Shown here: piece by piece, positions 4,448-63,888 of the stretch | How positions within the stretch are numbered: position 1 is the stretch's first letter | How the letters are laid out: each line of letters starts with the position of its first letter | Made by a program: the position numbers and the translations under genes | NCBI GenBank assembly: GCA_000270325.1 | Contig: BA000048.1 | Location: 515,709-579,708, forward strand | Direction of reading: 5' to 3' | Length of the DNA: 64,000 nucleotides | From: Candidatus Caldarchaeum subterraneum | GTDB lineage: Archaea; Thermoproteota; Nitrososphaeria_A; Caldarchaeales; Caldarchaeaceae | Notes under the pieces: generated by a model | Told to the model about the DNA's origin: nothing | The model's input: the letters and a program-made list of their open reading frames with translations, nothing else | The model's database searches: none

Positions 4448-7400
4448 TTATTTCTTTGGTGGTGCTGCTGGGTAGATGCCGAGGCGGCGTCCTCTCCAGC
4501 GGATGTATTCGCTGACGATGACGACTACGACGATGACCAGCAGTATGAGGCCGATGATCAGCGCGAGGAACGTGGCGAGGGTCATGGGTACGCCGAACAG
4601 TATGGTGTAGAGGTCGAGGACGATTGTTGCGCTTCTAACGCCTCTAGCTACGTTGGCTGAGTTGCTGAACTGTTCGTAGGATGCTCTTACTGAGTAGTCT
4701 GCGCCCACGACTTTGGAGAAGACCGCCGAACCGCTGGCGTCTGTGGCCGCTGTGGCTATTGTTGTTCCTCCTCTCACCAGCTCAACAATGGCGCCCTGTA
4801 TCGGCTGTCCTGCAGCGCCCTTGACAATTACGGCGATGTCGTATATGCCTGCCTGTATGGTTGCCGATGTCCGGGAGGCGGTGAACCTTACACGGTCTCC
4901 GCCGATAGTTGTGCCATCCTTGGAAACCTCTATCTGGTATTCGTTGTCGAGCGGTACTTGTCCGATGATGACGACGCCTTGGCTGTCTGTTGAGCCTACT
5001 TGTTGTCCGCCGAACCTTATGGCTGCGCCTGCCACGGGTCTACCGTCGAAGTCGACTACTGTCAGGGTTACGTCGTCTACGGGTATGACTATGCTGCCTC
5101 TGCTCTGTAGGCCTGCCGGCGTGTCTCTTACCGCTGCTCTCGCTGTTGTTCCGTATGGGCTGGTCCATTCGACGGTGAAGTCATAGGTTCTGCCGTCGGG
5201 TACGCGGAGGATTGTGAATATGCTGTCGGGTCTTAGCTGTATGTCCTGTTCTCTGACTAGGTTGGGTGAGACGCTTACTCTAGCGCCTGCCACGGGTCTG
5301 CCCTGTCTGTCGACGACGTTGAAGCTGAGGTCTCTGAGTGCGAGGACGACTGTGCCCTCAACGGTTCCGACGTTGGTTCTGCTGACGTCGAAGGTTCTTC
5401 TGCCGACTTCTTCACCGTTTGCGTCGGGCCAGAGGGCGACGATGTCGTAGGAGCTTCTGGCGAGGCGTTTGGCTTCGAAGATGGCTCCTTGTCCACGTAT
5501 GATGAAGTCGTCGGGCAGTGCTAGGCTGGGTGCGCTGAAGACGTATGCTGGGTCGGCTGGTCTCTGTGCGTCGCCGTAGACGAATCTTATCCTGAGGTCG
5601 AAGATGCGTGTGATGACGTCGAAGCTTCTGCCCCAGCCTGCCGGCGGGCAGCTGGCGAGTGCCTCTAGGACTCCTGCGGTGTAGTTGTATGAGCCATCTC
5701 CTGCATGTCTACAGACATCGGCTCGGAACCATCCGTCTCCCGTTGGCCAGGGTCCTGCTTCGGCTGTGTATGCGAAGCCGAGAGGTATGTCTGGTTTCTG
5801 TGTTTCCTGTGTGGTTTCGTCGTCTCTGCTGTCATATGCTATGGGCCATCTGGCGAAGCTGTTGACTGGCCATGTGGGTTCTCCGTTGGCGCCCTGTCCG
5901 AGGTAGAGGACTCTCTGGATGAAGACTCCTCCGGGCTTTCTAATGGGCATGGGCACTATTCTGCCGTCGGGTCCTGCATAGCTCCATGCGGCTGATTTGC
6001 CTGTCTGTGCGTCGATTATCTGGTAGAAGGCTCCGGGCAGTGGCCTCCCGTTGAAGTCGGTGATTCTGGCCGAGACGTTCTGGAACTCGAACATCTTGAT
6101 GAAGGGTCTGTGTGCTCTGTTGTCTGGGTCGTTGCTCACTACCGTGACCGTTGCGGTGCGTGCGACGCCTTCATATGGTCTGCCGTAGCCCATGTACTGT
6201 ATGCCTAGGTCTACGCCAGGCACCTGTAGCTGGTCGCCGACGTGTAGGTTTACGGGCTGTCCTGTGAGTGGGTCGATGGCTTGGCTGACCCAGTTTCTCC
6301 AGTAGTTGCTGGTTGTTCCTCTGTTGGGGTTGTCTGCGCCTGCTTGTCCTGTGCCGTCGTTGTACCATATGCTTGGTGGCGGTGAGACCTCGTCTATGAC
6401 GAGGGTGCTGCCGCCCCATATGACTGTCGAGGGTGTGTCTCCGCTGGTGACCGTTACGAGTCCAACTGGTTTGCCGGAGATGCATATGTTGACTGTCTTG
6501 TCGCCGACTGTGATGGTTCCCGCTGTTGTTACGGCGTCGATGGGTTTCGGTGCGAATGTTGCGCCAAGAGGTGGCACTATTCTACCTTTGACGATGTATC
6601 CTAGGAGCGGCCCGCAATCGTAGCTGCCGAGCTCGTAGTCGCCTACCTGCCAGAAGACGGGGATGTCGACGTCTGTGGCGTTGAGCTTGATGGCGACGAC
6701 TTTGCTGCCTGGTGTTGGTGTGGCTGTCCATGTCCGTGTCAACGCGTAGCCAGGTATCGGCTGGAACTGTCCTGTTCCTGTTGTTCCTCTGTAGAATGTG
6801 ATGTCGAAGGGCGGGTGTCCGAACAGCATCCACGCGTCTGGGAATTGGGCGGGTATTCTCCAGACCAGTTCATAGTGGTCGCGCTGCCATGCTCCGTTGT
6901 TATATTTTGGCGATGATGGGTCGATGGGTAGCTGGTCGCTCCATACGCTGATGCGGTACTGTATTCTGCTGTTTTCCTGGTTGGTGAGATGCGGGTGGCG
7001 TCGATCGTAGCCGGTCGGGACTGGGTTGTATGGCCATCCGTCAATCATTCTGCCGTCTTCATAGCTTGGGTAGGGTATGTCCCATGAGCGTGTTACATCG
7101 TCGTAGACCCATCTGCCGGCTGAAGAGTCGAATACCAGGTCCCAGTCGCTCTTGGTGAAGCGCTCTGATGTCGGTAGCCATGGGAGTGTGAGCTGGCCTG
7201 TTGTCCACTTGGCTGCTCCACGTGTCTCGGGTACGGCTGTGTATGTCCATGTTCTGCGGGCGTGGTCGACTGTTATCCTGCCTGGGAAGACTGTATTGCC
7301 GTCTGTTACGTTGAGCCACCAGATTCTTGCGTAGAGGTCTTTGACGGGTCGGTCTTTGTTGGCGCTTATGGCGAGGACGAATGTCACATCGGCGATGGCT

Positions 7401-10400
7401 ACTTTGTCAACCGAGTAGCCTCTCTTGGTGAGGTTGAAGGCGTCTTTGTAGACGATGCTGCTGTTGAGGTACCAGTAAACAGTCAACGTGTAGTTAACAA
7501 CGTTTGTCCCGAGGATGTTCTCCATGGCTTCCTGTGTCGGGTAGAGGAGTGTGAGGTTGCCGTCACGTCCTGTCTTGTAGAGAACTGAGGAGGAGCGATC
7601 CACTGTACCGCTATCGTCGTAGTATACGTCGAGCTGTACGACTGCGTATGGTATGGGTCTTGCGAGGTCTTCGTCTTTGAGGTTGAGGGTTATGAAGCCT
7701 ACCGGTATGGGTACTGTTACGACTTCTTTCTCGAACACCAGTGTTGTGGGTCTTGTCGGAACCTCGATGTACCTCTTTCCTTTGAATGGTGTTGATATCT
7801 CTTCGACTGCTCCGGCTGCGACCGCTTGCTCCCATCTCCATCTCTGCTGGTTCCAGAGGCCTTCATTGCCTACGACTGTGAAGTTGTGGGTGGGCCACTT
7901 GCCATTGGCTGTTTCGTTGACCGCTGGGTTGAAGAACTCTCTTATGAGGAAGCTGTCTCCTGGCCTAACGTCTCCTCCTGGGCTGGTTAGCGGTCCCTTC
8001 TGCGTTGTCAGCCATCCGCTGCCTGTTAGCCCTGCTTTGTCGTAGAATCTTGCCCATGGCTGTTCGCCTCTGGTGAACTCGAGCGGGTAGACGTAGCTGT
8101 AGAAGGTGAGGTCTTGTTTGCGGTAGGTGCCGTTCCACCAGATGTTGCTGCTGTGCTGGCTGTCTGCTTTGAGCCAAGTGGTTAGGAGGGTGTCTTCGGT
8201 CCATTTGCTGACGAAGAGCGATGAGAAGACTCCGTCTTCGGGTATGAACATCTCCATGTTGACGCCGTTGTCGTTGACTATGTGGTAGGTGGCGTTGCCT
8301 ATGCGGCGTGCTTCGTTGAGGTAGTCGAAGTCGCCGTCGACGATGCGCTGTTTGAAGGTGTGGGCCCATGTCAGCAGGTCTATCCTGACGGGTCCGCATG
8401 TCTTGTAGAGTGTTGCGTTGCCGATTGGGTTGAGGTTGGGGTCGGTGACGAATTCACCGTTCCATGTCATGTAGACTCTGAGGACGACTCTGTCATTGAC
8501 CTGGCCTGCAGGAGTCTTTCTGATGCTCGGTGGGCTGCTGTGGCTTGTCCAGTCAATCTTGATCTCATAGTCGACGGGCACGGTTCTGCCTGGCCACTTG
8601 CTGTTGCCTGGTGTCTGTTGCGTCTCGGGGTCTCCTGTTGTTACTGTTGTTACTGTTATGTTGTAGAGTGCGCTGGGCATCTTGTAGAAGACGTAGCGGA
8701 CGTCTCCGTAGGTCTTGAGGCCGTTTGACCTGGATATGCCGCCGAAGAAGTGGTCGATTCTGTAGCGGAAGAACTGGCTGAATGCGAGGGTTGTGTTGAA
8801 TTTGTCAGTGTTGGTGTCGCCTGTTGGGTCCATGGTTTCGAGGAAGTATAGGCGGCTGCCTGTTAGCGGGTGTACACCGACCCATGTGAGGGTGATGTTG
8901 AGCCTGGGTATCCTGTTGTCTTGGTTGTAGTCCCATGTTGTGAATATGAAGTCGTTGATGAGGGCTGTGAGTTTGATGGGTGAGTCGATGTTGCTGTCGA
9001 CGGTGAATGTTAGGCTTCCGTCGGGGTTGAGCGGCAGTGTGTCGTCGCCTATTCTAGCGTCTGTGAACTTGACCCATACACCCTTCCACCATACGCCGTC
9101 GATTGTGTATTGTCCTCCTGCTAGGTAGCCGAAGTCGAGGGCGCCTGTGCTGTCGAGCTGTGTTACGTAGGGTGTTGCGGGTGATGGTGGCACTACTTTG
9201 ACGAATGCTTCTCTGGAGAGTGGGCTGTTTTCGCAGTCGACGAAGACGAGCTTGACTTTGTAGATGCGGAGGACGAGGTCCTCCATGATGGTGTGGGTTA
9301 GTTTGTCGACGGTGGCTTCTCCGACGGGTGTGCCGTCGAAGGTGACGGTGACCATGTATGCGAGGTCTTCGGGCAGCTGGTAGAATACTGCCCATCCTTC
9401 GCCGTGCTGGTCATAGCTCCACTGTAGGCTGCCTGTGGATGGGAAGAAGTCGGGTATCAGGCTGGCTCCTGTCTTGGTTATTGGTGGTCCGTTGCCGCGC
9501 TGTAGGGTGATGGCTGTGTTGGCGGCTGGAGCCGGGTTGCCGAGGTTGTCAACAAGCCTATAGGCAAGATCGTGAACATTAGCCGTAATGTAGACGAGAC
9601 CCGCTCTTGCCAACGCTATGTCAGGAGCCTTGTGCGGCGCAAGACTCTGCAGTATTACTACCTGTCTCTTTGTGGCGTTGAGTATCGCGAATGTACCTGA
9701 CTGAGGCTGGCCTGAGAAGAGCATTCCTCCGACGAAATCATTGTAGGTGAACGCTGGATCCAATGTCTGTATGTCTGTGTTGTTTGATGATACAAGTGTC
9801 CTGATTGTCTGTGAACCCGGTGGCCCTGGCCATATCTCGACCTCGGCTGCACCGGTCTCGCCGGTAGTAGTTACGTTGAACCTTCTGATGGATGTGCTGT
9901 CTATTACCCCGTCTGGTCCGATGTCCTGCCAACCTGCGAGAGCGTAGGAAATGTTTCCGACTATCGGCTGGTTGGTGGCTGCGTCATGGTATTTGATGCT
10001 AGCTATAACGCCGCTGAAGGTGAAGGGCGTTCTTATGAAGCCGCCATGTGTTGCGTTTTCAACTATGTCTACTCGTAGGTCTACTCCAGGCGGATAGTTG
10101 ACGAATATGTCGAAGGTGCCTGTTAGCGGGTTGTAGTTCTGCAACCGCATTCCTATGGGGGTGTTTGAGGAGATCATCAGTGTAACCGGTCCACGGATTG
10201 GCCTCGGTGTTCCGAGGGGTCCTCGGCTGAGGGTTACGGTGACCTCGTTGTGTATCTTGATGAGGACTGTGTTGTTTCCTAGAACTACGTTCGGGACTAT
10301 CCATCCGTTGTATGTGGTTGTGTTGGTGGCTGCTATGGCGTAGGGGTTGCGTACTCTTACGCTGTCGACGAGGACTGCGGAGCCGCCGTATCCGTTTCTT

Positions 10401-12238
10401 GCTCCGCCTTTCCACTTGACCTGTATCTCGAAGCCGCCCCACCGCGGGTCATCGCTGAGCTGTCTTGTCTTCATGTAGGTGATTTCGGGAATGAGGGCGC
10501 TCCAGTTCATGCCCGCGTTTATCCATGGTCCCTGCCAGCTTCCGCCCCACGCCTGCTCAAAGTATCCGCCTGGTCTCCATGCTGGAGAGACGTCGTCTGC
10601 TGGGTTGAAGAAGTAGCTGGCGTTGAGGCTTCCTCTGAGGCCCCAGTTGGTTCCGTTGGGGAAACGGGCGAATTTGCTGTACTGGCCTAGGTATCCAGGC
10701 CACTTGTGCGGGTCGTTGGTGCAGCCGTCGCTGCCCGTGGTGTGTATGCTGTGGGCCAGGTAGTAGGGTACATCAGCTGATGTCTTGAAGTTGAGGGTGA
10801 CCTCTGCCCCGACCATCTTATCGCCTATCCATGGATGCTGGATGGCAAGGTCAGCGTCCTGCACACAGAACCGAGCATAAAACACCGTGTTATTCTCAAA
10901 GTTCGCTATCGATGGCCCAACGGTCTCAACATTCGCAGTAGTGTCAGTGCCCTCCCATGTTGGCAGCAAGGGCCTAGGTGGGTCTATATACACTGTCTCG
11001 TTAAGTACGAGGCTGAACGGCCCAGCGGGAACACCTGTGATGCCTCCCTGCGTAATCGTTGGGTTGACCGATGGGTTTGATGGATAGGCTCCGAACAGAG
11101 GCCTTATCTTGCCGGTGGCAGGGTCGGTAGCATACTCGGGAGCATTTGGACCACCTGTTTGGTTGTATTCGTTTCCTACGTAGAAGGTCTGGTTGACGAG
11201 TACGGTCTCCCACCAGACACGCTTGGTGGCGTTGAGATGCGGAGCCTCGATAAAACCGTTGTTATCTTCAGGGTCAGGAATACCTCCTTCGAATGGTTCT
11301 CTGGTGCCGAGGTTGATGCTCTGCAGCGGTATTGGGACGAGGCGGTTCTGTGCAAACTTGCCTGAACCCACACCAGCGGAGCGTGGATAGATTTCACGAG
11401 TGTATCTGCTCTGGCCATCATCTCCGGTTATAGCCGCCTGTATCAGTGATTGTGTGGAGCTGGCGTCTGTGTGGTCGGTGTCGTATATGAATATCGTCGC
11501 ATAAGTCAACACATCATTGGTGGCGTACCATGTGTGTTCGTGGAAGAGCTTGAAGATGTAGGCCGCGCGAGCCAACCAAGCCCTCTGAGGATCGTTGTGG
11601 TTAATCTGGAAAGTTATTGGACCGGATGCATAGTTTACGTTGTCCACGGGCCCTGACCCGAGAGGCGGAAAGATGTTCCAGTTAAATGGACCACCGTGGG
11701 TATCTTCTATGCCGTCATCGTTTATAGTGCTGTTGAAAGCTGAGAACCCGAACTTGCTTAGGAAGCTCGGTGTGGGGTTGACTGTTAGCCAGTAGACTAT
11801 GATTCCTCGGAATGGGTTGCCCTCGCCGATACACTCACCCTGATAGCTCTTCGCCTTCACAATAATGGTAACGTTCTCCCAGCCAGCAGGCCACGAAACC
11901 CTGATGAAACCAGTGCCGTTAGGACTGCCCGCTCTAATCGGACCCTCCCAACTATCCAAAGGCGCAGTACTTGCTCCACTTGGGTTCTTGAACTTATACA
12001 GCTCAACACAGACATTCGTCACATTATACCTATCAGCAAAGCCAACACCAGTCGGCTGCACAGGAGGAGCACCAGCTACATAAGGTGCACCATCCCACGA
12101 AGCCGTCACTATTTTGAGCCATGCGGTGTAGTTCGGCTGCGCAAACGCCGGCGTGACAATCGCTGCTCCAAGGAAAGCCGTCGGAAGCGCTAGCAGCAAA
12201 GCTAGCAAAACTGCCTGACTTTTTCCAATCATCAACAC
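4448..12238 (-). CDS. Giant (2596 aa) secreted, membrane-anchored surface protein; S-layer or adhesin candidate
   Basis: Uninterrupted 7.8 kb ORF; N-terminal signal peptide, dense N-x-S/T sequons, C-terminal repeats of the ...DGRPVAGA... type (carboxypeptidase-regulatory-like), C-terminal TM helix plus basic tail. Confidence 0.8.
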   Translation of the reverse strand: MLMIGKSQAVLLALLLALPTAFLGAAIVTPAFAQPNYTAWLKIVTASWDGAPYVAGAPPVQPTGVGFADRYNVTNVCVELYKFKNPSGASTAPLDSWEGPIRAGSPNGTGFIRVSWPAGWENVTIIVKAKSYQGECIGEGNPFRGIIVYWLTVNPTPSFLSKFGFSAFNSTINDDGIEDTHGGPFNWNIFPPLGSGPVDNVNYASGPITFQINHNDPQRAWLARAAYIFKLFHEHTWYATNDVLTYATIFIYDTDHTDASSTQSLIQAAITGDDGQSRYTREIYPRSAGVGSGKFAQNRLVPIPLQSINLGTREPFEGGIPDPEDNNGFIEAPHLNATKRVWWETVLVNQTFYVGNEYNQTGGPNAPEYATDPATGKIRPLFGAYPSNPSVNPTITQGGITGVPAGPFSLVLNETVYIDPPRPLLPTWEGTDTTANVETVGPSIANFENNTVFYARFCVQDADLAIQHPWIGDKMVGAEVTLNFKTSADVPYYLAHSIHTTGSDGCTNDPHKWPGYLGQYSKFARFPNGTNWGLRGSLNASYFFNPADDVSPAWRPGGYFEQAWGGSWQGPWINAGMNWSALIPEITYMKTRQLSDDPRWGGFEIQVKWKGGARNGYGGSAVLVDSVRVRNPYAIAATNTTTYNGWIVPNVVLGNNTVLIKIHNEVTVTLSRGPLGTPRPIRGPVTLMISSNTPIGMRLQNYNPLTGTFDIFVNYPPGVDLRVDIVENATHGGFIRTPFTFSGVIASIKYHDAATNQPIVGNISYALAGWQDIGPDGVIDSTSIRRFNVTTTGETGAAEVEIWPGPPGSQTIRTLVSSNNTDIQTLDPAFTYNDFVGGMLFSGQPQSGTFAILNATKRQVVILQSLAPHKAPDIALARAGLVYITANVHDLAYRLVDNLGNPAPAANTAITLQRGNGPPITKTGASLIPDFFPSTGSLQWSYDQHGEGWAVFYQLPEDLAYMVTVTFDGTPVGEATVDKLTHTIMEDLVLRIYKVKLVFVDCENSPLSREAFVKVVPPSPATPYVTQLDSTGALDFGYLAGGQYTIDGVWWKGVWVKFTDARIGDDTLPLNPDGSLTFTVDSNIDSPIKLTALINDFIFTTWDYNQDNRIPRLNITLTWVGVHPLTGSRLYFLETMDPTGDTNTDKFNTTLAFSQFFRYRIDHFFGGISRSNGLKTYGDVRYVFYKMPSALYNITVTTVTTGDPETQQTPGNSKWPGRTVPVDYEIKIDWTSHSSPPSIRKTPAGQVNDRVVLRVYMTWNGEFVTDPNLNPIGNATLYKTCGPVRIDLLTWAHTFKQRIVDGDFDYLNEARRIGNATYHIVNDNGVNMEMFIPEDGVFSSLFVSKWTEDTLLTTWLKADSQHSSNIWWNGTYRKQDLTFYSYVYPLEFTRGEQPWARFYDKAGLTGSGWLTTQKGPLTSPGGDVRPGDSFLIREFFNPAVNETANGKWPTHNFTVVGNEGLWNQQRWRWEQAVAAGAVEEISTPFKGKRYIEVPTRPTTLVFEKEVVTVPIPVGFITLNLKDEDLARPIPYAVVQLDVYYDDSGTVDRSSSVLYKTGRDGNLTLLYPTQEAMENILGTNVVNYTLTVYWYLNSSIVYKDAFNLTKRGYSVDKVAIADVTFVLAISANKDRPVKDLYARIWWLNVTDGNTVFPGRITVDHARRTWTYTAVPETRGAAKWTTGQLTLPWLPTSERFTKSDWDLVFDSSAGRWVYDDVTRSWDIPYPSYEDGRMIDGWPYNPVPTGYDRRHPHLTNQENSRIQYRISVWSDQLPIDPSSPKYNNGAWQRDHYELVWRIPAQFPDAWMLFGHPPFDITFYRGTTGTGQFQPIPGYALTRTWTATPTPGSKVVAIKLNATDVDIPVFWQVGDYELGSYDCGPLLGYIVKGRIVPPLGATFAPKPIDAVTTAGTITVGDKTVNICISGKPVGLVTVTSGDTPSTVIWGGSTLVIDEVSPPPSIWYNDGTGQAGADNPNRGTTSNYWRNWVSQAIDPLTGQPVNLHVGDQLQVPGVDLGIQYMGYGRPYEGVARTATVTVVSNDPDNRAHRPFIKMFEFQNVSARITDFNGRPLPGAFYQIIDAQTGKSAAWSYAGPDGRIVPMPIRKPGGVFIQRVLYLGQGANGEPTWPVNSFARWPIAYDSRDDETTQETQKPDIPLGFAYTAEAGPWPTGDGWFRADVCRHAGDGSYNYTAGVLEALASCPPAGWGRSFDVITRIFDLRIRFVYGDAQRPADPAYVFSAPSLALPDDFIIRGQGAIFEAKRLARSSYDIVALWPDANGEEVGRRTFDVSRTNVGTVEGTVVLALRDLSFNVVDRQGRPVAGARVSVSPNLVREQDIQLRPDSIFTILRVPDGRTYDFTVEWTSPYGTTARAAVRDTPAGLQSRGSIVIPVDDVTLTVVDFDGRPVAGAAIRFGGQQVGSTDSQGVVIIGQVPLDNEYQIEVSKDGTTIGGDRVRFTASRTSATIQAGIYDIAVIVKGAAGQPIQGAIVELVRGGTTIATAATDASGSAVFSKVVGADYSVRASYEQFSNSANVARGVRSATIVLDLYTILFGVPMTLATFLALIIGLILLVIVVVVIVSEYIRWRGRRLGIYPAAPPKK

Positions 12239-52616: not shown

Positions 52617-52701
52617 GCGGGGGTCGCCAAGCCTGGTCAACGGCGCAGGACTGAGGCTCCTGTCCCGAAGGGGTTCGTGGGTTCAAATCCCACCCCCCGC
52701 A
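52617..52701 (+). tRNA. tRNA-Leu (anticodon GAG), type II, no intron
   Basis: Acceptor GCGGGGG/CCCCCGC, anticodon stem CAGGA/TCCTG with loop CUGAGGC, 14-nt variable arm, T-arm GTGGG-TTCAAAT-CCCAC, discriminator A. Confidence 0.75.
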
Positions 52702-53330
52702 TGTGCGACAACACAATTCCATAGCATGTTCACACCTTCCCTTTTCCCTCTTTTGATGGGGAGAATGTCGAGGTTGGCTCTTAAGAGCGCGTCAACGGGA
52801 TGCGTTCCATTTGCTATGTTGCAGAGGAGGGCTACAGCCAGCTGGCTACCATACCTGTATTTAGGCACCTTGATGCTCAGAAGACTCAGCGTCTCATCTA
52901 GCTCACGCTGCCTGCTCTCAGGCCTTCTGGCGAAATTCACGTCTTCTTGCTGGAAAATCCACGCCAAAGCATAGAGAATGTACTCCAAATCATATCCGGG
53001 AAGACCTTCAACAGCATGTCTAAACCTCTCCACAACAGTTGCGATGTTCGCACCTTGCCAAACCTCCACGATAGCTTTTAGGACCTGCATGGCCTTCTCC
53101 TTGTCGGCGCATAGTTTACCGTAGAAATCTATGGCGAAGTGGGCGTGCTTAGGTGTGTATGACCGTATTCGTGGCTCAAGCTGGTAAACAGTTCTCACTT
53201 TGAAATCGCGTTTGGATTTACTGTCTTCGGTTTTGAGCAGTATCCATCCGTTGCTGAGCCTGACTACCTCGAGTATTCTCCGTCTGTTCCTGCCCCTGCC
53301 AAAATATTCGCCAACCGATAGCATGGTCAA
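52683..53330 (-). CDS. Hypothetical protein, 215 aa, overlapping the downstream end of a methyltransferase gene; its 3' end overlaps tRNA-Leu by 19 nt
   Basis: ORF; 4-nt overlap (53327-53330) with the methyltransferase; no recognisable catalytic motif. Confidence 0.5.
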   Translation of the reverse strand: MTMLSVGEYFGRGRNRRRILEVVRLSNGWILLKTEDSKSKRDFKVRTVYQLEPRIRSYTPKHAHFAIDFYGKLCADKEKAMQVLKAIVEVWQGANIATVVERFRHAVEGLPGYDLEYILYALAWIFQQEDVNFARRPESRQRELDETLSLLSIKVPKYRYGSQLAVALLCNIANGTHPVDALLRANLDILPIKRGKREGVNMLWNCVVAHAGGGI

Positions 53331-54304
53331 ATCTGCGTTAACCAGCCGCTCAACGACAATCTGCCCCGTTCTTCCTCGTTTTCCGGCTTTCTGAAGATGT
53401 ATAGATGTTCATGGGCTATTTTGTGGAAGCCATATTGTTCAAAATTTTTTCCACTCCATTTTTCACGCGTCGTCTTCATTTTGTGCTGCAGCTTGATTAT
53501 ATCCTCTGCTAGAACAAAGCCAGCTTGCAAGAATTTCAGCATCACGTAAGTGGAGATAGGCACGTAGTGTTTGTGTTTTCTCGTGTCGCCGATGAGTATT
53601 GCACAGTATCGTCCTGGTTTCAGAACACGGTAGGATTCACGGGCTATCTGCATCATTTTTCCCAAATAGTCCTCTAGCTTTCTGTATGCTGAAAGATCGC
53701 CTTCAGGTCTTTTCCGTGAATATGGGATGATGTTCCAATAGGGTGGATGTGTGGCGATCAAGTCTACACTCTCATCTTCTATGATGTTGAGTTTTGCCGC
53801 ATCGCCGTGATACACTTTTATCACCGGTTCCTGTTGTTCATCCAGTGGATGGAATTCAAAATTGAGCCGGTCCAGCGTGAGTATACATGCTTCATAATTG
53901 ATGTCGACGCCTATCGCGTTTCTCCCCAAGAGTGTCGCCTCGACCAGCGTGGTTCCCGAGCCAACCATCTGGTCAAGCACAAGCTCCCCCGGTTTAGTGT
54001 ATTTTAGAATCAGGTTTCTCGGAACATAGGGGCTCCAGTTTCCCCTGTAGTCGCCGGAGTGTGTGGCCCAGTCGCCGCGGTCCGGAAAACTCCACACAGT
54101 TGTGGCCTCGAGGTTGTATGATGCCGGTGGGCTGTATGAGTTGATTTTATGTGGTTTGCCTATCTCTATCCTGACATCTTCTACCTCGACATAGCCTTTC
54201 TCAGCCACATAGCGGCGATAATCCTCCCAAGTGACGGGCCTCATGCTAGTCAACACAAACTGTGAAGACCCTGTGTCCAACAGCGTCCCGAACATTCTGC
54301 TCAC
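53327..54304 (-). CDS. Amino-methyltransferase (DPPY family), paralog of 16497..17693
   Basis: NWSPYVPRNLILKYTKPGELVLDQMVGSGTTLVEA (motif X/I) followed about 75 aa later by VDLIATHPPY (motif IV) and RVLKPGRYCAILIGD. Confidence 0.7.
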   Translation of the reverse strand: MSRMFGTLLDTGSSQFVLTSMRPVTWEDYRRYVAEKGYVEVEDVRIEIGKPHKINSYSPPASYNLEATTVWSFPDRGDWATHSGDYRGNWSPYVPRNLILKYTKPGELVLDQMVGSGTTLVEATLLGRNAIGVDINYEACILTLDRLNFEFHPLDEQQEPVIKVYHGDAAKLNIIEDESVDLIATHPPYWNIIPYSRKRPEGDLSAYRKLEDYLGKMMQIARESYRVLKPGRYCAILIGDTRKHKHYVPISTYVMLKFLQAGFVLAEDIIKLQHKMKTTREKWSGKNFEQYGFHKIAHEHLYIFRKPENEEERGRLSLSGWLTQI

Positions 54305-57765: not shown

Positions 57766-58320
57766 TTAAAGCTTTTGTGTTTTTTGGCGTGCGAGTGCGA
57801 CTGCTTTGTCAGCGGCTGCTTCGGGGTCGTTGATGTAGTGGGCTGCGTTGATTTTTCGGTGGTCGAGGTGTCCGTCGGGATGCATCTGTGCGAGGATGTC
57901 TGATGGATAGCCTGTCTCGGTTAGGATGATGAGTGGGATGCGGTAGATGTATGCGAGGTGTGCTTCGATGATTGTTCCCGAGCCGCCGCCGAGGATGACG
58001 AAGCTGTCGCTGCTTCTGACGAGGCCTATGCTTCTTGCCTGGTAGGTTTGTCCGCTGCGGAAGACGATGGTGTTGTAGGGGTTGTATCGTGGATGGGTTT
58101 TGTCGATGAACTCGTCCTCGTATGGGATGACGCCCACCGTTATCCCACCTCTTCGCACAAACTCTTCACACACCACACGCATCAAGCCGCCGTCACCACC
58201 CGTCAGCAAAACAACCTCATCCCTGTAAACACCCAGTCGCGCGGCAAACCTCCGCGCCTTCTCAACAGCACCCGGCAAAGGCTCACGGTCACTCGAACAA
58301 CCCACACCAATCTGCAGCAT
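57766..58320 (-). CDS. LOG/TIGR00725-like Rossmann-fold protein
   Basis: VLLTGGDGGLM and ILGGGSGTIIEA Gly-rich motifs. Confidence 0.45.
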   Translation of the reverse strand: MLQIGVGCSSDREPLPGAVEKARRFAARLGVYRDEVVLLTGGDGGLMRVVCEEFVRRGGITVGVIPYEDEFIDKTHPRYNPYNTIVFRSGQTYQARSIGLVRSSDSFVILGGGSGTIIEAHLAYIYRIPLIILTETGYPSDILAQMHPDGHLDHRKINAAHYINDPEAAADKAVALARQKTQKL

Positions 58321-58421
58321 AGCCCACTAGCCAACAACCACCCTATTAAACCATAGACACGTCAAACCAAGAATTCTTGGAAAAAGGTAAAGCTTATTGG
58401 TGAAATTTTTCTCTTGTTTTC

Positions 58422-58568
58422 GTGGGCTGGAGAGCTTCTGAGCCTTGTCCTTTCTGCGGTATCAGGGTTCAGCCCATCAAGACCTTTCACGGGTCAAAGA
58501 AGTGTCCGCTCTGTGGGGGAGAATGGTTTGAGTCAGGTGGCTTTGCTCCGAAGACAACCATGTGGTGA
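58422..58568 (+). CDS. Putative small zinc-ribbon protein (48 aa, GTG start), not in ORF table
   Basis: Reading frame VGWRASEPCPFCGIRVQPIKTFHGSKKCPLCGGEWFESGGFAPKTTMW* contains two CPxCG knuckles 18 residues apart. Confidence 0.3.
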   Translation: MGWRASEPCPFCGIRVQPIKTFHGSKKCPLCGGEWFESGGFAPKTTMW

Positions 58569-58597
58569 AAAAAGGGATAGTTAAAGTGTATTGCCGT

Positions 58598-58626
58598 GGG
58601 TCTGTGATTTTTCCCGTCAAAGCTGT
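58598..58626. repeat. 29-nt direct repeat copy 1 (gggtctgtgatttttcccgtcaaagctgt), intergenic, just 3' of reverse gyrase
   Basis: 28/29 identity with 62489-62517; flanking gcttgcgag also shared. Confidence 0.8.
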
Positions 58627-58654
58627 AAGTGTTGAACCCTGTTGCTTGCGAGCT

Positions 58655-61600
58655 TTATGCAGCTCTTGCAGGTGTTTTCGAGATTTGTAAAGTTTCTCTG
58701 TACAGTTCTTTTAGAACTTCTTGGTAGCTGACCTTACCAGACTCGATACTCTCCATGAGCTCCTCCAGCCTCCTCGTCAACGCCTCGGAGACAAACGAGC
58801 CAAAATTCGACACGAGATATCCATAGATTGTCTTACCCAGTTTTGTCGCCAGAACTCTTCCATTATCGTTGAAAATGTATCGTCTCTTGTAGAGGAGGTT
58901 GAGGACCTGTGCGTAGGTGCTCGGCCTGCCTATGCCTCGTTCCCTCATCAAGGCGATTATGTCACCTTCGCGGAAAAACGGCACCGCCTGCATGCTCTTG
59001 ATCTGGAGGTTCAGCACCCTGTGGACACCCGGTTCAAGCGCCTTCACCGTCTTGATGACTTGGTAGAGGTGGAGGAACCCTGGCTCAATAACATCTACAA
59101 TCCTCTCTATATCATAGGTTTTCCCGAGAATCATCAACTTGCATATCTGTCTCTGCACCAGCGCGTCCTTCATCTGACTAGCCATGAAACGTCTAAACAC
59201 AAGGTCGTAGAGCATAAACTCTCTATCACCTATTCGCATCGGCACTCTAATCAAACCCGACTGGAGATAAAGCTCGAGCTGCTTTCTCGAGAGCGGTTTC
59301 GTCGGCCTGATGCATTCATGTGCACCTGGTTCGCCATGATGCCTCGCCACAAAAAGCCCTGGAAAGTTCTCTTCAAGATAATTTCGAGCCACCGATAACC
59401 CTGTCGACGAGACATACGTCGACCCCGTTCTATGATAAGTTATCAGACCTGACTCGAAGAGGGTCTGGGCAGCATCCATCGCCTCCGCAGCACTCAGCCT
59501 GAGAAAAATCGATGCATCCCTTAGGAGAGAATCGGTCGTATAGGGCTTGACAGCAGGTACAACCGTCTCAACATACTTTACATCAGCCACCTCCACATTC
59601 AACACGCCCTCGGCATAGAGTCTCTTGACAACGTCAACATCCTCAATGCTGTCTAGCATGAGCTCGGAGCCGTCTTCAAACGTCATGCTTGCGACTAGTC
59701 TCTTCTTCTTAGCCTCTTCCATCCTTTGGATTATCCAGCCGAGGACAGGGGTTTGGACACGGCCTGCCGAGAGATGTTTTTCTCCGAAAAACTCCCAGAG
59801 ACGTCTGCTCAGCTCAAAGCCAACCCACCTATCCTCAATCCTTCTCACAACCTGTGCCTCGACAAGCGGCAGCGAAATACTGCGAGGAGACTTGAACGCA
59901 TCCCGCAAAGCCTTCCTCGTAATCTCATGAAGCTCAAGCCTCTCAATCCGCTTGTTAAACGGCCAAATACTCACATAGAGGTCGTAGCCAATCTTCTCAC
60001 CCTCCGTATCAGGGTCGGTTGCAATAAAGACACGGTCAAACTCGAGCGCCAGTTTACGGAGAGACTCGATTATGGATAGCTTGGTAAAGTATTTATCGGA
60101 GCGGCAGTTGGGACATACTTCGCTGTCCGTAAACTGCTCTCCACACTTAGAGCATCTCCTAATATCCACATACATCGGCACAAACTCTCCATCATGGACC
60201 CAGACACCATGGAACCCCTGGCTCGTCGTAATGTCCACCAAATGCCCCTGACAAGCGGTGAGACACGCGACATATCCCTCGCCAACCGACTCGTAAACAG
60301 TCAGTCCATCAACAACTCGTCTAGCAGGTTTTCCGAAGAAATAGGCCAGTGTACGGGCCTTCGTAGGCGACTCGACAACAATCAGCGACGAGCTCAAAAT
60401 ATCTAAGGACTCTAGTCTAGCCGACCCTGTTCTAATCTCTCGCAGAAACTGTCTATCTCTATCACATTGCTTAAACTCCTCCCTGGCTTGCTCCAAGGTG
60501 TATTCTTGGAACGTTTCTTCATAAATGGTTTCGAGGGCTCTCGAGATGCCTCTAAAAGCTTTCTCGTCATCTACTATGAGGATGGATATTCCACGGGTTA
60601 TGCCTCCCGCATACATCCTCGACGAGCGGCCCGACGCCTGTATATATCCATCGATGTCGGGAAGAATGATAGAGACACCGTTCTCGTCTACACGTAATCT
60701 CATGTCTAGGTTCTCTGCGACACGTCTCAGCTCCTCTTCACCGATGTATGTTTTTAGAAGTTGATGAGCTCTCGTGACAGCTGAGTAGACGTATCCCGCA
60801 AATCCTTCGGGCTGTCTAGAGGATTCAAGCCCCTCTCTGACAATCTCCAACACCTCCCTATCGGTGGGGACACATTTCTTCAACATGCCGGTGACCTGTA
60901 CTAGTTCGGACTCGTTCTTCTCCCTAAGTATCGAGTACAGGTTTCTGAGGAGGCTGAGCAGCATAGAGGGCCTGTGCTCTCGCCAAGACACGTTAAGCTC
61001 ACGCCTGGGAACACCGGCGAAAATTACGTATCTTATCCGCTCCGGTAAGTCTATGCCTCTGGCTAGAGGGCTTCTCCTGCTAGCGACACCGACCAAGACA
61101 TCATACTCGCCCAACTCAAACCGACCAAGCATCTTCGCATCCATCCTCTCGTAAGCATATGCGCTAATACCCTGGCTGTTCAGAAATTTTGCCAGCTCTT
61201 TAGCGGACTCGACGCCCGCTGTCTGCGGCACAAAAATCAGACATCCGCCGCCATGTGTCTTCACCAGCTCAGCAACCTGCTCCCACATGTTCTTGCTTGG
61301 ACGCAGATACATGTTGGAGATGTTTCTGACAAACTCTATTGAGCCTCCGGGCTCAAAGTTTAGAAGGCGTCTGAACAGTTGGATTCTCTTGGTTCTCCGG
61401 CCCTTCGCAGTGGCTCCGGCTACAAGCAATATAGAGTCGGGCTTCGCAATTTCTCTAGAAGCATGCTCCCCTGCCTCATTCTTCTCAGACCTACGCGAGA
61501 CTAGGCTTAATTGTCTCTCTATCTCTTCTTCATCAAACCCCATTAAGAGAAGAACCTTGTCGATGTTCCTCGCCGACTTGAGGAAAGAGTCTACATCATC

Positions 61601-62182
61601 AACAAAAATGAAGGAGAACTTTTTTCCTCTCAGAAGCTCGAAACGTGTGTTGAGGAAACGGTCTGTAGTAACCAGAATGTTAAACTCCTCATCCCTTATC
61701 TTCTGCAGCATCTCTTCCGCCTCGCTCTTTTTCATGCCGGAAAAGTATCCAGCGATTTTTGGTGCTTTTTCTCCATGTTTGGCCGCCATCGATAAGGCTC
61801 TTTCATGGATTTGTTGTGCAAGGAGGCTTGTGGGGACGATTATGTAGGATTTTTTCCCCTTGGACGCTTGGTAAATGGCCATCGCTATGAAGAAGGTTGT
61901 CTTCCCCGTTCCCGTCGGAGAAACTATTGAGAAGCTTCTTCCAAGGAATGTTCTTCTAATCCATGTCCGCTGCAGAGACCATGGAGGGGAGCCAACGACT
62001 CTGCTGAAAAAATCCGCAAACTCTCTATATCTTTCCTCAAGCTCCAAAGCCTTTGTATATTTTCCCGGCTTAAGCCTGCCATCCTGCGAAACACATCTGC
62101 TACAAACTCCGTTACCAATAAGCTCCTCATCGGTTATTGCCCCTCCACAGTTTGGGCAGAGAGATGCATAGATCGACTTCAA
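58655..62182 (-). CDS. rgy: Reverse gyrase
   Basis: 1175 aa: N-terminal Zn finger CPNCGG...CSRC, helicase Walker A PTGTGKTT, topoisomerase IA Toprim IVESPTKARTL, second Zn finger CSKCGE...CPNC. Confidence 0.9.
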   Translation of the reverse strand: MKSIYASLCPNCGGAITDEELIGNGVCSRCVSQDGRLKPGKYTKALELEERYREFADFFSRVVGSPPWSLQRTWIRRTFLGRSFSIVSPTGTGKTTFFIAMAIYQASKGKKSYIIVPTSLLAQQIHERALSMAAKHGEKAPKIAGYFSGMKKSEAEEMLQKIRDEEFNILVTTDRFLNTRFELLRGKKFSFIFVDDVDSFLKSARNIDKVLLLMGFDEEEIERQLSLVSRRSEKNEAGEHASREIAKPDSILLVAGATAKGRRTKRIQLFRRLLNFEPGGSIEFVRNISNMYLRPSKNMWEQVAELVKTHGGGCLIFVPQTAGVESAKELAKFLNSQGISAYAYERMDAKMLGRFELGEYDVLVGVASRRSPLARGIDLPERIRYVIFAGVPRRELNVSWREHRPSMLLSLLRNLYSILREKNESELVQVTGMLKKCVPTDREVLEIVREGLESSRQPEGFAGYVYSAVTRAHQLLKTYIGEEELRRVAENLDMRLRVDENGVSIILPDIDGYIQASGRSSRMYAGGITRGISILIVDDEKAFRGISRALETIYEETFQEYTLEQAREEFKQCDRDRQFLREIRTGSARLESLDILSSSLIVVESPTKARTLAYFFGKPARRVVDGLTVYESVGEGYVACLTACQGHLVDITTSQGFHGVWVHDGEFVPMYVDIRRCSKCGEQFTDSEVCPNCRSDKYFTKLSIIESLRKLALEFDRVFIATDPDTEGEKIGYDLYVSIWPFNKRIERLELHEITRKALRDAFKSPRSISLPLVEAQVVRRIEDRWVGFELSRRLWEFFGEKHLSAGRVQTPVLGWIIQRMEEAKKKRLVASMTFEDGSELMLDSIEDVDVVKRLYAEGVLNVEVADVKYVETVVPAVKPYTTDSLLRDASIFLRLSAAEAMDAAQTLFESGLITYHRTGSTYVSSTGLSVARNYLEENFPGLFVARHHGEPGAHECIRPTKPLSRKQLELYLQSGLIRVPMRIGDREFMLYDLVFRRFMASQMKDALVQRQICKLMILGKTYDIERIVDVIEPGFLHLYQVIKTVKALEPGVHRVLNLQIKSMQAVPFFREGDIIALMRERGIGRPSTYAQVLNLLYKRRYIFNDNGRVLATKLGKTIYGYLVSNFGSFVSEALTRRLEELMESIESGKVSYQEVLKELYRETLQISKTPARAA

Positions 62183-62460
62183 CGCTAAGAAGCATCTACT
62201 CCCGCCTCAACTTATATTGTTTCCAGATGTGAGTGAGGCTTGTTAGGCTTGTTGTGGTTGAGCCATGTTTAAAAACATTTCTGGCTTCTGTGTTTCCTAG
62301 ATGTTGTTTGGTGGCTGCCTGCCAGCCAACCATCCCCCAATTTTTCCCGTTTGTTATGTTGTTTTTCTTTCGCCTTACGCTCTTTCTCTTTTATGCAAAC
62401 TCGTCGATTGATGGGAGTCTATGATAGTTTTCGCCTCGCCGCTCCTAATCCATGAGGTTA

Positions 62461-63888
62461 TTAAAGGTCCTGCAGTGGAAACTGTCTCGGGTCTGTTATT
62501 TTTCCCGTCAAAGCTGTGGCCGCTGCGACGAGAGGGCTTGCGAGATGCGTCCGTCCTCCGACGCCTTGCCTGTTCTCGAAGTTGCGGTTGCTTGTCGAGA
62601 GACATCTCTCGCCGGGCCTCAGCCTGTCCTCGTTCATGGCGATGCACATGCTGCATCCGCTGTTCCGCCACTCAAACCCTGCCTCCATGAATATCCTATG
62701 CAGCCCCATTCTTTCAGCTCTCCGCTTTGTCAGCTGCGAACCCGGCACCACAAGAACCCTGACACCCTCGGCCTTCTTCCTACCTTTCACAAGCCTCGCC
62801 ACATCAATCAAGTCGCTCAACCTGGCGTTGGTGCATGAGCCGATGAACACCGTGTCCACCTTGATGTCCGAAACCTTCATCCCAGGCTTTAGCCCCATAT
62901 ACTGCAGAGCCCGTTCAACGGCTTTTCTATCGGATGGGTCGTCAAAGTCATCGGGCGACGGCACGTTCTCCGTTACTCCGACTGTCATGGCGGGGTTGGT
63001 GCCCCACGTGACCTGTGGCTCGATGCGGGACACGTCAAACTCATGGACCGTGTCATATTTTGCGCCCGGGTCTGTTTTCAGCGTCCGCCAATACTCCATC
63101 GCCTCATCCCATTCACGGCCCTTCGGGCTATAGGGCGCGTCCTTGAGAAAGTTGAAGACTTTTTCATCGGGTTCTATGATGGCTGTCCGCGCCCCGCCCT
63201 CTATGGACATGTTGGTCAACGTCATCCTCTCCTCGACGCCGATGCTTCTGACATAGTCGCCTGTGAACTCGACGACGTGTCCTATGCACCCCCCTGTGCC
63301 GAGCTTCCTGATGATGTAGAGGATAACATCCTTCGCTGTCACGTTTTCGCCGAGTTTACCCATCAGCCTAATGTTCATCTGCTTCGGCTTCTTCAGCCAA
63401 AGCGTCTGCGTGGCAAAAACATGTTCCCCCTCGCTTGTCCCGATTCCGAAGGCGAGGGCCCCGAATGCGCCATGGGTGGATGTGTGGCTGTCGCCGCAGA
63501 CAAGCGTGATGCCAGGGATGGTGAAGCCCAGCTCAGGCCCAATAACGTGGACGATGCCCTGAAACGGGCTAAAGTAGTCGAACAAGGTGATGCCGAACTC
63601 TCGTGCGTTGCGGCTGAGCGCCTGCATCTGCGCCGCCGACATAGGGTCTCTCACAGGCTCCAATCTATCGCCTGTTGGAACGTTGTGGTCCATCACCGCG
63701 AAAGTCAGGTCGGGCCTCCGCACTCTACGGCCCGCGGCCCTCAACCCCTCGAAGGCAAGCGGCGAAGTAACCTCATGTGTCAGATGACGGTCTATGTAGA
63801 GAAGCGTCTGCCCATCCTCTCTCTCCGCGAGAGCATGGCTGTTCCAAATCTTCTCAAACACCGTGTAGCCCATGCCTCTCCAAAACAC
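62461..63888 (-). CDS. leuC: 3-isopropylmalate dehydratase / homoaconitase large subunit (aconitase family)
   Basis: YIDRHLTHEVTSP, VCGDSHTSTHGA, FIGSCTNARLSDL motifs of aconitase-family large subunits. Confidence 0.8.
   Translation of the reverse strand: MFWRGMGYTVFEKIWNSHALAEREDGQTLLYIDRHLTHEVTSPLAFEGLRAAGRRVRRPDLTFAVMDHNVPTGDRLEPVRDPMSAAQMQALSRNAREFGITLFDYFSPFQGIVHVIGPELGFTIPGITLVCGDSHTSTHGAFGALAFGIGTSEGEHVFATQTLWLKKPKQMNIRLMGKLGENVTAKDVILYIIRKLGTGGCIGHVVEFTGDYVRSIGVEERMTLTNMSIEGGARTAIIEPDEKVFNFLKDAPYSPKGREWDEAMEYWRTLKTDPGAKYDTVHEFDVSRIEPQVTWGTNPAMTVGVTENVPSPDDFDDPSDRKAVERALQYMGLKPGMKVSDIKVDTVFIGSCTNARLSDLIDVARLVKGRKKAEGVRVLVVPGSQLTKRRAERMGLHRIFMEAGFEWRNSGCSMCIAMNEDRLRPGERCLSTSNRNFENRQGVGGRTHLASPLVAAATALTGKITDPRQFPLQDL
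62489..62517. repeat. 29-nt direct repeat copy 2, inside the 3' end of leuC (encodes TALTGKITD)
   Basis: See copy 1. Confidence 0.8.

Follow-up and report, generated by a model that had tools for sequence, protein, structure and literature searches.

How did the reverse gyrase gene (rgy) of Candidatus Caldarchaeum subterraneum come to lie next to leuC, between two copies of a short sequence that also encodes the end of leuC? The question is raised by a stretch of 64,000 nucleotides (nt) of contig BA000048.1 (positions 515,709 to 579,708), hereafter called the window, in which a preliminary description made from the letters alone had noticed a near-perfect direct repeat around rgy. For comparison, 108 related loci were fetched and labelled L001 to L108. 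The two repeat copies are probably the junction scars of one insertion, in which a crossover within the repeat core imported ~3.8 kb of DNA, with a new leuC tail and rgy as its only gene, and displaced the old leuC end.

The core is a 29-mer, GGGTCTGT[G/T]ATTTTTCCCGTCAAAGCTGT on the plus strand, which occurs at 58598–58626 (copy 1) and 62489–62517 (copy 2) with one mismatch between the copies. The repeat described earlier was thereby confirmed, as no further match with up to three mismatches was found in the window and the chance expectation was 0 (100 shuffles). An 11-nt partial match at 62340–62350, considered as a third copy, was no better than another 11-mer at 46575 and was taken as chance. 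Copy 2 indeed lies inside leuC (62461–63888, minus strand, Pfam Aconitase) and encodes TALTGKITDP, whereas copy 1 was correctly placed 28 nt beyond the rgy stop codon (58655–58657). A second shared block, GCTTGCGAG, also stood where it had been reported, at 58644–58652 and 62536–62544, with distances of 17 and 18 nt to the cores. Read on the minus strand, copy 1 (TALTGKITDPRQY) matches the leuC C-terminus (TALTGKITDPRQF), and the codons just beyond the core show the synonymous differences that had been claimed (CCA/CCG, CGG/AGA and CAA/CAG).

The same repeat pair and layout were found in L108, L001, L086 and L094, which are four independent assemblies. L108 and the window, with 99.8% identity, form lineage A. 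L001, L086 and L094 are ~99% identical among themselves and 90–93% identical to the window; they are referred to as lineage B. Throughout the 108 loci, the core is confined to leuC 3' ends and to the position just after rgy. Given the recurrence of the layout in independent assemblies and this restricted distribution, the repeat is neither an assembly artefact nor a dispersed sequence. Chance similarity, convergence on a conserved peptide or an artefact of the fosmid-derived composite genome can be regarded as practically negligible explanations. The core does encode a motif that is conserved across the genus, but other species differ from it at 4–6 of the 29 positions while encoding the unchanged peptide. 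Moreover, no match is expected by chance, the homology continues past the core in lineage B and the layout is shared by the four assemblies.

The gene leuC encodes the large subunit of 3-isopropylmalate dehydratase (BAJ50465.1, exact match; Pfam Aconitase with 3.7e-172). The closest relative without rgy at leuC is L002, an 851-kb contig with no rgy within 10 kb of leuC. Its leuC is 96% identical at the amino acid (aa) level and 88% identical at the nucleotide level, and it ends with PRQYTLQELF and a stop codon. The two genes share 81–93% identity along the whole body, and no mosaic tract was detected in the body before the tail when compared with L002. Over the last 66 nt and the core, 89 of 95 positions are identical, but only 21 of 33 in the tail (Fisher p=9e-5), and the switch in similarity falls at the 3' edge of core copy 2. 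The tail of the window gene (62461–62488, minus strand; PRQFPLQDL and stop) agrees at 27 of 30 positions with the more distant L004, although the gene body is only 78% identical to L004 versus 88% to L002. Sequence comparison thus shows that the present leuC tail is of foreign origin and that leuC is a hybrid of a native body and nine imported last codons.

Lineage B preserves what appears to be the original end around copy 1. In this lineage, copy 1 is embedded in ~125 nt of leuC 3' sequence, a remnant whose start directly adjoins the rgy stop codon. The 29-nt core has a left arm of 66 nt, which is ~80% identical to leuC and contains two 1-nt gaps, and a right arm of 31 nt, which ends with TALTGKITDPRQHTLQELF and a stop codon (PRQHTLQELF). 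The remnant tail matches the L002 leuC tail at 29 of 34 positions and the working leuC tail of its own genome at 20 of 29. The left arm matches L002 at 50 of 61 positions. In the window, the remnant has suffered deletions of 38 nt and 14 nt and contains a 19-nt unalignable patch, which leaves no more than the core, the 9-mer and a few codons recognisable. Its left part (58627–58654, minus strand), which measures 66 nt in lineage B, is strongly decayed by the 38-nt deletion and holds the CTCGCAAGC block at 58644–58652. On the other side of the core (58570–58597, minus strand), the decayed tail reads PRQYTLTIP..., and its stop codon, which lineage B keeps, was lost via the 14-nt deletion.

Since the remnant tail matches L002 while the working tail is foreign, copy 1 can be identified as the displaced original leuC end, its tail being evidently orthologous to that of the rgy-free L002. 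The functional tail, to which the non-coding remnant is not second but superior in closeness to L002, cannot be a vertical descendant and must therefore have been imported. This order of similarities also bears on the proposal that copy 1 is left over from a tandem or paralogous leuC copy (leuC-rgy-leuC') that was deleted down to its last ~125 nt. In favour of this, the remnant is leuC-derived and begins exactly at the rgy stop codon, as the end point of a deletion could. However, it measures only ~125 nt at best, its tail is orthologous to that of the single leuC of L002, and it is the functional tail that is the odd one. A duplicate starts out identical, and a constrained copy cannot outpace a neutral one in divergence. 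No relative was seen with a full second aconitase-family gene at the site of copy 1, and the absence of rgy from its conserved native locus (see below) would be left unexplained. The paralogue remnant offered as one explanation in the preliminary description is therefore very unlikely.

The core itself indicates where the exchange may have taken place. Core position 21 is occupied by C in copy 1 of lineages A and B and by A in copy 2 of the window and in L002, which would fit a crossover within the last 8 nt of the core. Copy 2 of lineage B later acquired C at this position by substitution or conversion. That copy 2 matches copy 1 at this position in lineage B is, taken on its own, a hint of copy-to-copy conversion or of selection on the core. 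The remnant core is identical between lineages A and B (29 of 29), whereas identity drops to ~89% in the non-coding DNA around it and deletions are found in both flanks (P ~0.03 for no change). Chance, conversion against copy 2 or a function are possible reasons for the intact core, with two lineages available for this comparison. As for a function, a T5 run in the core, situated 40 nt past a convergent ORF (open reading frame) for a Zn-ribbon-like protein, could act as a putative terminator. Folding of the remnant into an attC-like or terminator structure was not significant (fold z-scores of -1.5 to +0.1).

A separate observation concerns the junction in lineage B, where a perfect 8-bp hairpin, CTTGTTTG-AAA-CAAACAAG, directly follows the rgy stop codon (L001:15033–15051). 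It is built from the first bases of the remnant by few changes and is deleted in the lineage of the window. The hairpin could be a footprint of the junction or a terminator-like element.

The bracketed segment contains rgy as its single gene. The ORF (58655–62182, minus strand) is complete and encodes 1175 aa (BAJ50464.1, exact match) with the Pfam domains zf_Rg, DEAD, Toprim and Topoisom_bac. The product combines an N-terminal zinc finger, a superfamily 2 (SF2) helicase-like part and Toprim/topoisomerase IA in one polypeptide of the ~1,100–1,200 aa expected of a reverse gyrase. It was aligned over its full length to 120 reverse gyrases, and its C-terminus stops at the same place as in the native homologues. 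It is the only rgy of the C. subterraneum genome, for which 'one reverse gyrase gene' has been given (PMC3082918). Between the window copies only rgy and a 278-nt spacer are present. The earlier statement that rgy and a possible Zn-ribbon ORF lie between the copies thus held for rgy, but not for the ORF (58422–58568), which is located to the left of copy 1 and outside the bracket. This 48-aa ORF on the plus strand is convergent with rgy, has sub-threshold Pfam hits only and is 89.6% conserved in lineage B. It is flanking DNA of the original leuC end and not part of the inserted segment.

In lineage B, the unit between the repeats measures 3,734 nt and is composed of the core, the new tail of 9–10 codons, ~80 nt and the complete rgy ORF, whose stop codon lies 0–3 nt before the start of the remnant. 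The longer spacer of the window (62183–62460, minus strand) can be divided by blastn and alignment into the rgy upstream region at 62183–62252, which is kept in lineage B, and a stretch that is absent from it. The ~70 nt common to both lineages contain a TATA-like TTATATT at 62212–62218, 30–36 nt before the rgy start codon, and this region is presumably the rgy promoter. The additional 199-nt stretch (62253–62451) is present in lineage A (window and L108), while lineage B has 5 nt instead. No other copy of it was found in the window or the loci, and it had no match in Rfam.

Is this position the usual one for rgy? Below lineage B, the nearest relatives of the gene are 58–71% identical and belong to HR02-type Calditenuaceae and a second Caldarchaeales clade. 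All 12 loci with such relatives, which represent at least 7 distinct genomes or metagenome populations, carry rgy in one conserved block of genes for FAA hydrolase, aldehyde dehydrogenase, ilvD, leuB, dph6, NUDIX (minus strand), rgy, a TtuA-like protein (minus strand) and nitroreductase. Similarity between these native loci and the window is confined to the rgy ORF and ends at the ORF ends, and no remains of the native flanks (NUDIX, TtuA) were found around the window rgy. The comparison of loci shows a non-native position of rgy in C. subterraneum. TtuA homologues of two Caldarchaeum genomes (L105 and L107) were found in another context with no rgy, NUDIX or dph6 gene nearby and may be paralogues; a Dph6 homologue (P0140) was likewise found in another context. 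In the Aigarchaeota metagenome-assembled genome SKYB10 (L025:3929–7513), a distant rgy with 48% identity is found on the strand opposite to leuC, 2.5 kb upstream of it, which is probably coincidental.

With a displaced native end, a foreign present tail and rgy off its usual locus, the topology supports the earlier suggestion that the 3' end of leuC received an insertion or that a rearrangement brought rgy there. The comparison of the leuC-rgy neighbourhood in relatives, which had also been suggested, yielded the layout in L108, L001, L086 and L094 and its counterpart without rgy at leuC in L002.

The preliminary description had further offered the duplication of an attachment (att) site as an explanation. 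According to this, integrase-mediated site-specific integration would have brought a small element, which carried rgy and a replacement gene end, into the 3'-distal part of leuC with the 29-mer as att core, the integrase having been lost or supplied in trans. The length of the core is within the quoted range for crenarchaeal att sites (29–69 bp), the core is perfect between the lineages while its flanks decay, and synteny breaks at the leuC end in every species. However, neither an integrase nor a transposase was found in the insert by means of the ORF list and a Pfam scan of the 3.9 kb, rgy being the only gene, and no recombinase domain was found in the scanned flanking genes. Homology to leuC, though diverged, continues for ~66 nt on the left of the core and ~31 nt on its right, which would be superfluous for an att site; the sequence is a captured leuC 3' end and not a bare att core. 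Neither rgy relatives nor a match to the core were found in 2.9 million viral contigs, and the metagenome contigs with this rgy show the same chromosomal layout only. In addition, a survey of integrated elements in this genome names CalSub-E1 and CalSub-Pro only and does not list the rgy segment (PMC6563490). Integration by an integrase is therefore considered unlikely.

Two related candidates were rejected. A transposon with target-site duplication did not fit, as there is no transposase, the ends of the insert lack inverted repeats and the duplication comprises ~125 nt that are diverged outside the core. A viral origin was dismissed in view of the missing matches in the viral contigs.

An insertion by homologous recombination, the reading preferred here, would have proceeded as follows in the common ancestor of the two C. 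subterraneum-like lineages A and B. The incoming molecule would have carried a Caldarchaeum-type leuC 3' fragment and a complete rgy with ~70 nt of its own upstream region, and it would have recombined with the chromosomal leuC within the stretch that encodes TALTGKITDP. It most likely entered as a circle via a single Campbell-type crossover. Alternatively, a linear fragment could have been anchored by homology on the leuC side only and joined illegitimately ~66 nt upstream of the recipient core. The product would be a hybrid leuC with the last 9 codons and the stop codon imported, followed by rgy and the old leuC 3' end, which would now be non-coding and decaying by deletions. Campbell-type or one-sided homologous recombination is the most likely mechanism. 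We infer a circular intermediate as well as the use of host homologous recombination instead of an integrase, the latter because of the lack of a recombinase and the extended homology. Likewise, a lineage of Caldarchaeum, or an element adapted to the leuC of such a lineage, would have been the immediate donor, and not an HR02-type genome, since the imported fragment is Caldarchaeum-like (TGKITDP; PRQ[FY].LQ[DE]L). Searches for it with the imported leuC tail and with the remnant's left arm gave leuC ends of the genus Caldarchaeum as best matches, among which no single lineage stood out.

Several observations weigh against this account. No donor was found among the sequences compared, nor a genome with leuC-rgy but without the remnant, nor an rgy with 71–90% identity. 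Synteny is lacking between the DNA that lies downstream of the remnant and that downstream of the L002 leuC, where a CRISPR array abuts the stop codon; L002 is therefore not a clean empty site and could equally represent a state after excision. Similarity to L002 is about equal for the left arm (50/61) and the tail (29/34) of the remnant, which also fits a remnant that consists entirely of recipient DNA with an illegitimate right-hand junction; as regards the left arm, a circle and a linear fragment fit equally well. The composition of rgy favours the account, as its GC content at third codon positions (GC3) is 0.56 compared to a window mean of 0.62 ± 0.05, and at the native loci the GC3 of rgy equals that of its neighbours, but the deviation is just -1.3 standard deviations. 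Finally, the scar is carried by two independent lineages only.

Whether rgy was also new to the lineage, or was moved within it, is a further question. In a neighbour-joining tree, the C. subterraneum reverse gyrase is sister to the HR02-type clade. The database contained no rgy between 71% and 90% identity, though at least 8 other Caldarchaeum species have genomes. Identities of leuC and rgy were compared in close pairs, which gave 97/91, 93/90, 88/76 and 87/77%, respectively. Thus, rgy diverges faster than leuC in three of the four pairs, the fourth (93 vs 90%) being little different, whereas C. subterraneum and HR02 show 70% for leuC and 70–71% for rgy. This comparison is suggestive only, as leuC identity saturates near 70%. 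Further orthologues common to the window and the HR02-type or L089-type loci, sought to calibrate transfer versus descent, were not found. The 71–90% gap and the paired identities may hint at horizontal acquisition.

A more far-reaching view would treat rgy and the leuC-end repeats as a self-contained, re-usable cassette, and the only reverse gyrase of the C. subterraneum clade as horizontally acquired within Caldarchaeales and not inherited. Recombination between the cores would loop out a circle of core, new tail, promoter, rgy and leuC left arm, which could re-insert into the leuC of any Caldarchaeum with the core. CalSub-Pro, which starts one gene upstream of leuC, might help to move the neighbourhood between cells. 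This view would fit the data because no rgy with 72–89% identity is present in the database and rgy is as similar to the HR02-type gene (70–71%) as leuC is, despite its faster divergence. Nevertheless, it is rated as a rather improbable extension of the single insertion described above.

The surroundings of leuC were also compared. Upstream of leuC, synteny extends over several kb in most Caldarchaeum species; there is none in L008, and in L003 a ~8-kb block including a ParB-like gene is missing. At the leuC stop codon, synteny breaks in every Caldarchaeum species compared. In L002 (11446–14200 and 14398–17134), a CRISPR array with at least 36 repeats (CTTTCAATTCCCTCTTGCGGGATCAG) begins ~15 nt past the leuC stop codon; Cas4, Cas1 and Cas6 come next. 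HEPN genes follow leuC in L004, L006 and L064 (with an additional nucleotidyltransferase gene in L064), AAA_15/AAA_21 ATPases in L005 and L007, and an M50/START-like gene and an SF1 helicase in L008. In the genus, the leuC 3' end has the appearance of a hot spot at which variable or defence islands are found.

The gene that precedes leuC lies past the end of the window. It is the ParB-like CSUB_C0607, the first gene of CalSub-Pro (genome positions 579,614–598,752), which has been described as a head-tail provirus or an element resembling gene transfer agents, with approximate borders and no att sites (PMC6563490). Its genes for portal, S78 protease, HK97 capsid and adaptor were confirmed in L001 (1–9962). 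Synteny of at least the leuC-proximal part of CalSub-Pro (up to 10 kb) across several Caldarchaeum species suggests that the element is old or domesticated.

On the other side of the insert, lineage B has a 309-aa gene of the Na+/Ca2+ exchanger family (L001:15416–16345) between the Zn-ribbon ORF and a SLOG gene. This gene is absent from the window, where ~100 nt (58320–58422) separate the ORF and the SLOG gene. Further away, a tRNA-Leu(GAG) at 52617–52701 is followed by a stretch of low GC content (0.44–0.50) up to 54304. The region 52617–54304 contains a 215-aa ORF without Pfam hit that overlaps the tRNA end and an N4/N6 DNA methyltransferase, and it could be a restriction-modification islet inserted at the tRNA, at which no att-like repeat was found. 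The longest ORF of the window by far is located on the minus strand at 4448–12238 and encodes 2,596 aa.

No gene other than that of reverse gyrase is tied to life at very high temperature. Its transfer history has so far been inferred from trees (PMC6878951); a search of that study on rgy evolution for the organism and for mobility terms gave no report of the C. subterraneum rgy locus. No report of the junction scar was found in PMC3082918 or PMC6563490, both of which treat this genome. As read here, the scar would show that a complete rgy moved as a single-gene unit to a new chromosomal site in an Aigarchaeon, with the target gene being repaired meanwhile. It would be a rare physical trace of the movement of a heat-adaptation gene and a concrete model for the relocation or spread of genes for thermoadaptation. 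In addition, it draws attention to the leuC 3' end as a hot spot of recombination in the genus, with CRISPR-Cas, HEPN/MNT and ATPase islands or rgy in different species.

Among known systems, the integrated elements of Thaumarchaeota in the 3'-distal parts of genes that code for proteins are 5–50 kb in size and carry genes for integrases, replication or virions (Krupovic et al. 2019, PMC6563490). Like the rgy segment, they insert in the last codons of a housekeeping gene, are flanked by direct repeats, and provide a new stop codon and tail while the original end is found downstream; in both cases the check is a comparison with a relative without the insert. Unlike them, the rgy segment has one cellular-type gene and no recombinase, and it shares an extended, diverged gene end as homology. 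Flanking direct repeats as a feature of the integrase-borne class are thus present, but the segment does not belong to this class as tested because it lacks the recombinase. Integron cassettes resemble it as compact single-ORF units that have a recombination site at the 3' end and could in principle circularise. The rgy segment is not such a cassette, being accompanied by neither intI nor an attC-like fold and having a fragment of a chromosomal gene as its recombination site.

In rhs, cdiA and type VI secretion system (T6SS) effector loci, recombination in a conserved part of the gene adds a new 3' tip with cargo and leaves the former tip as an orphan downstream. Tip and cargo form a functional toxin-immunity pair under diversifying selection there. 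In the leuC-rgy scar, too, similarity breaks off in a conserved part of the gene, beyond which the 3' tip is foreign, and the cargo is followed by the retained former tip. Its topology is identical to this C-terminal displacement (e.g. Kirchberger et al. 2017, PMC5361080), which is closer to it than the elements of Thaumarchaeota. In contrast to these loci, the leuC tip is a 9-codon functional equivalent and the rgy cargo has no functional link to leuC. With regard to the mechanism, the case resembles Campbell-type insertion and homology-facilitated illegitimate recombination, in which one-sided homology suffices and the homologous segment is duplicated around the insert (PMC3240628). Those events were experimental and bacterial (transformation, conjugation and suicide plasmids), whereas the leuC-rgy event is deduced from a scar in an uncultivated archaeon. 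Given the fact that this class of mechanism is well known, the locus can be considered an instructive case and not a new principle.

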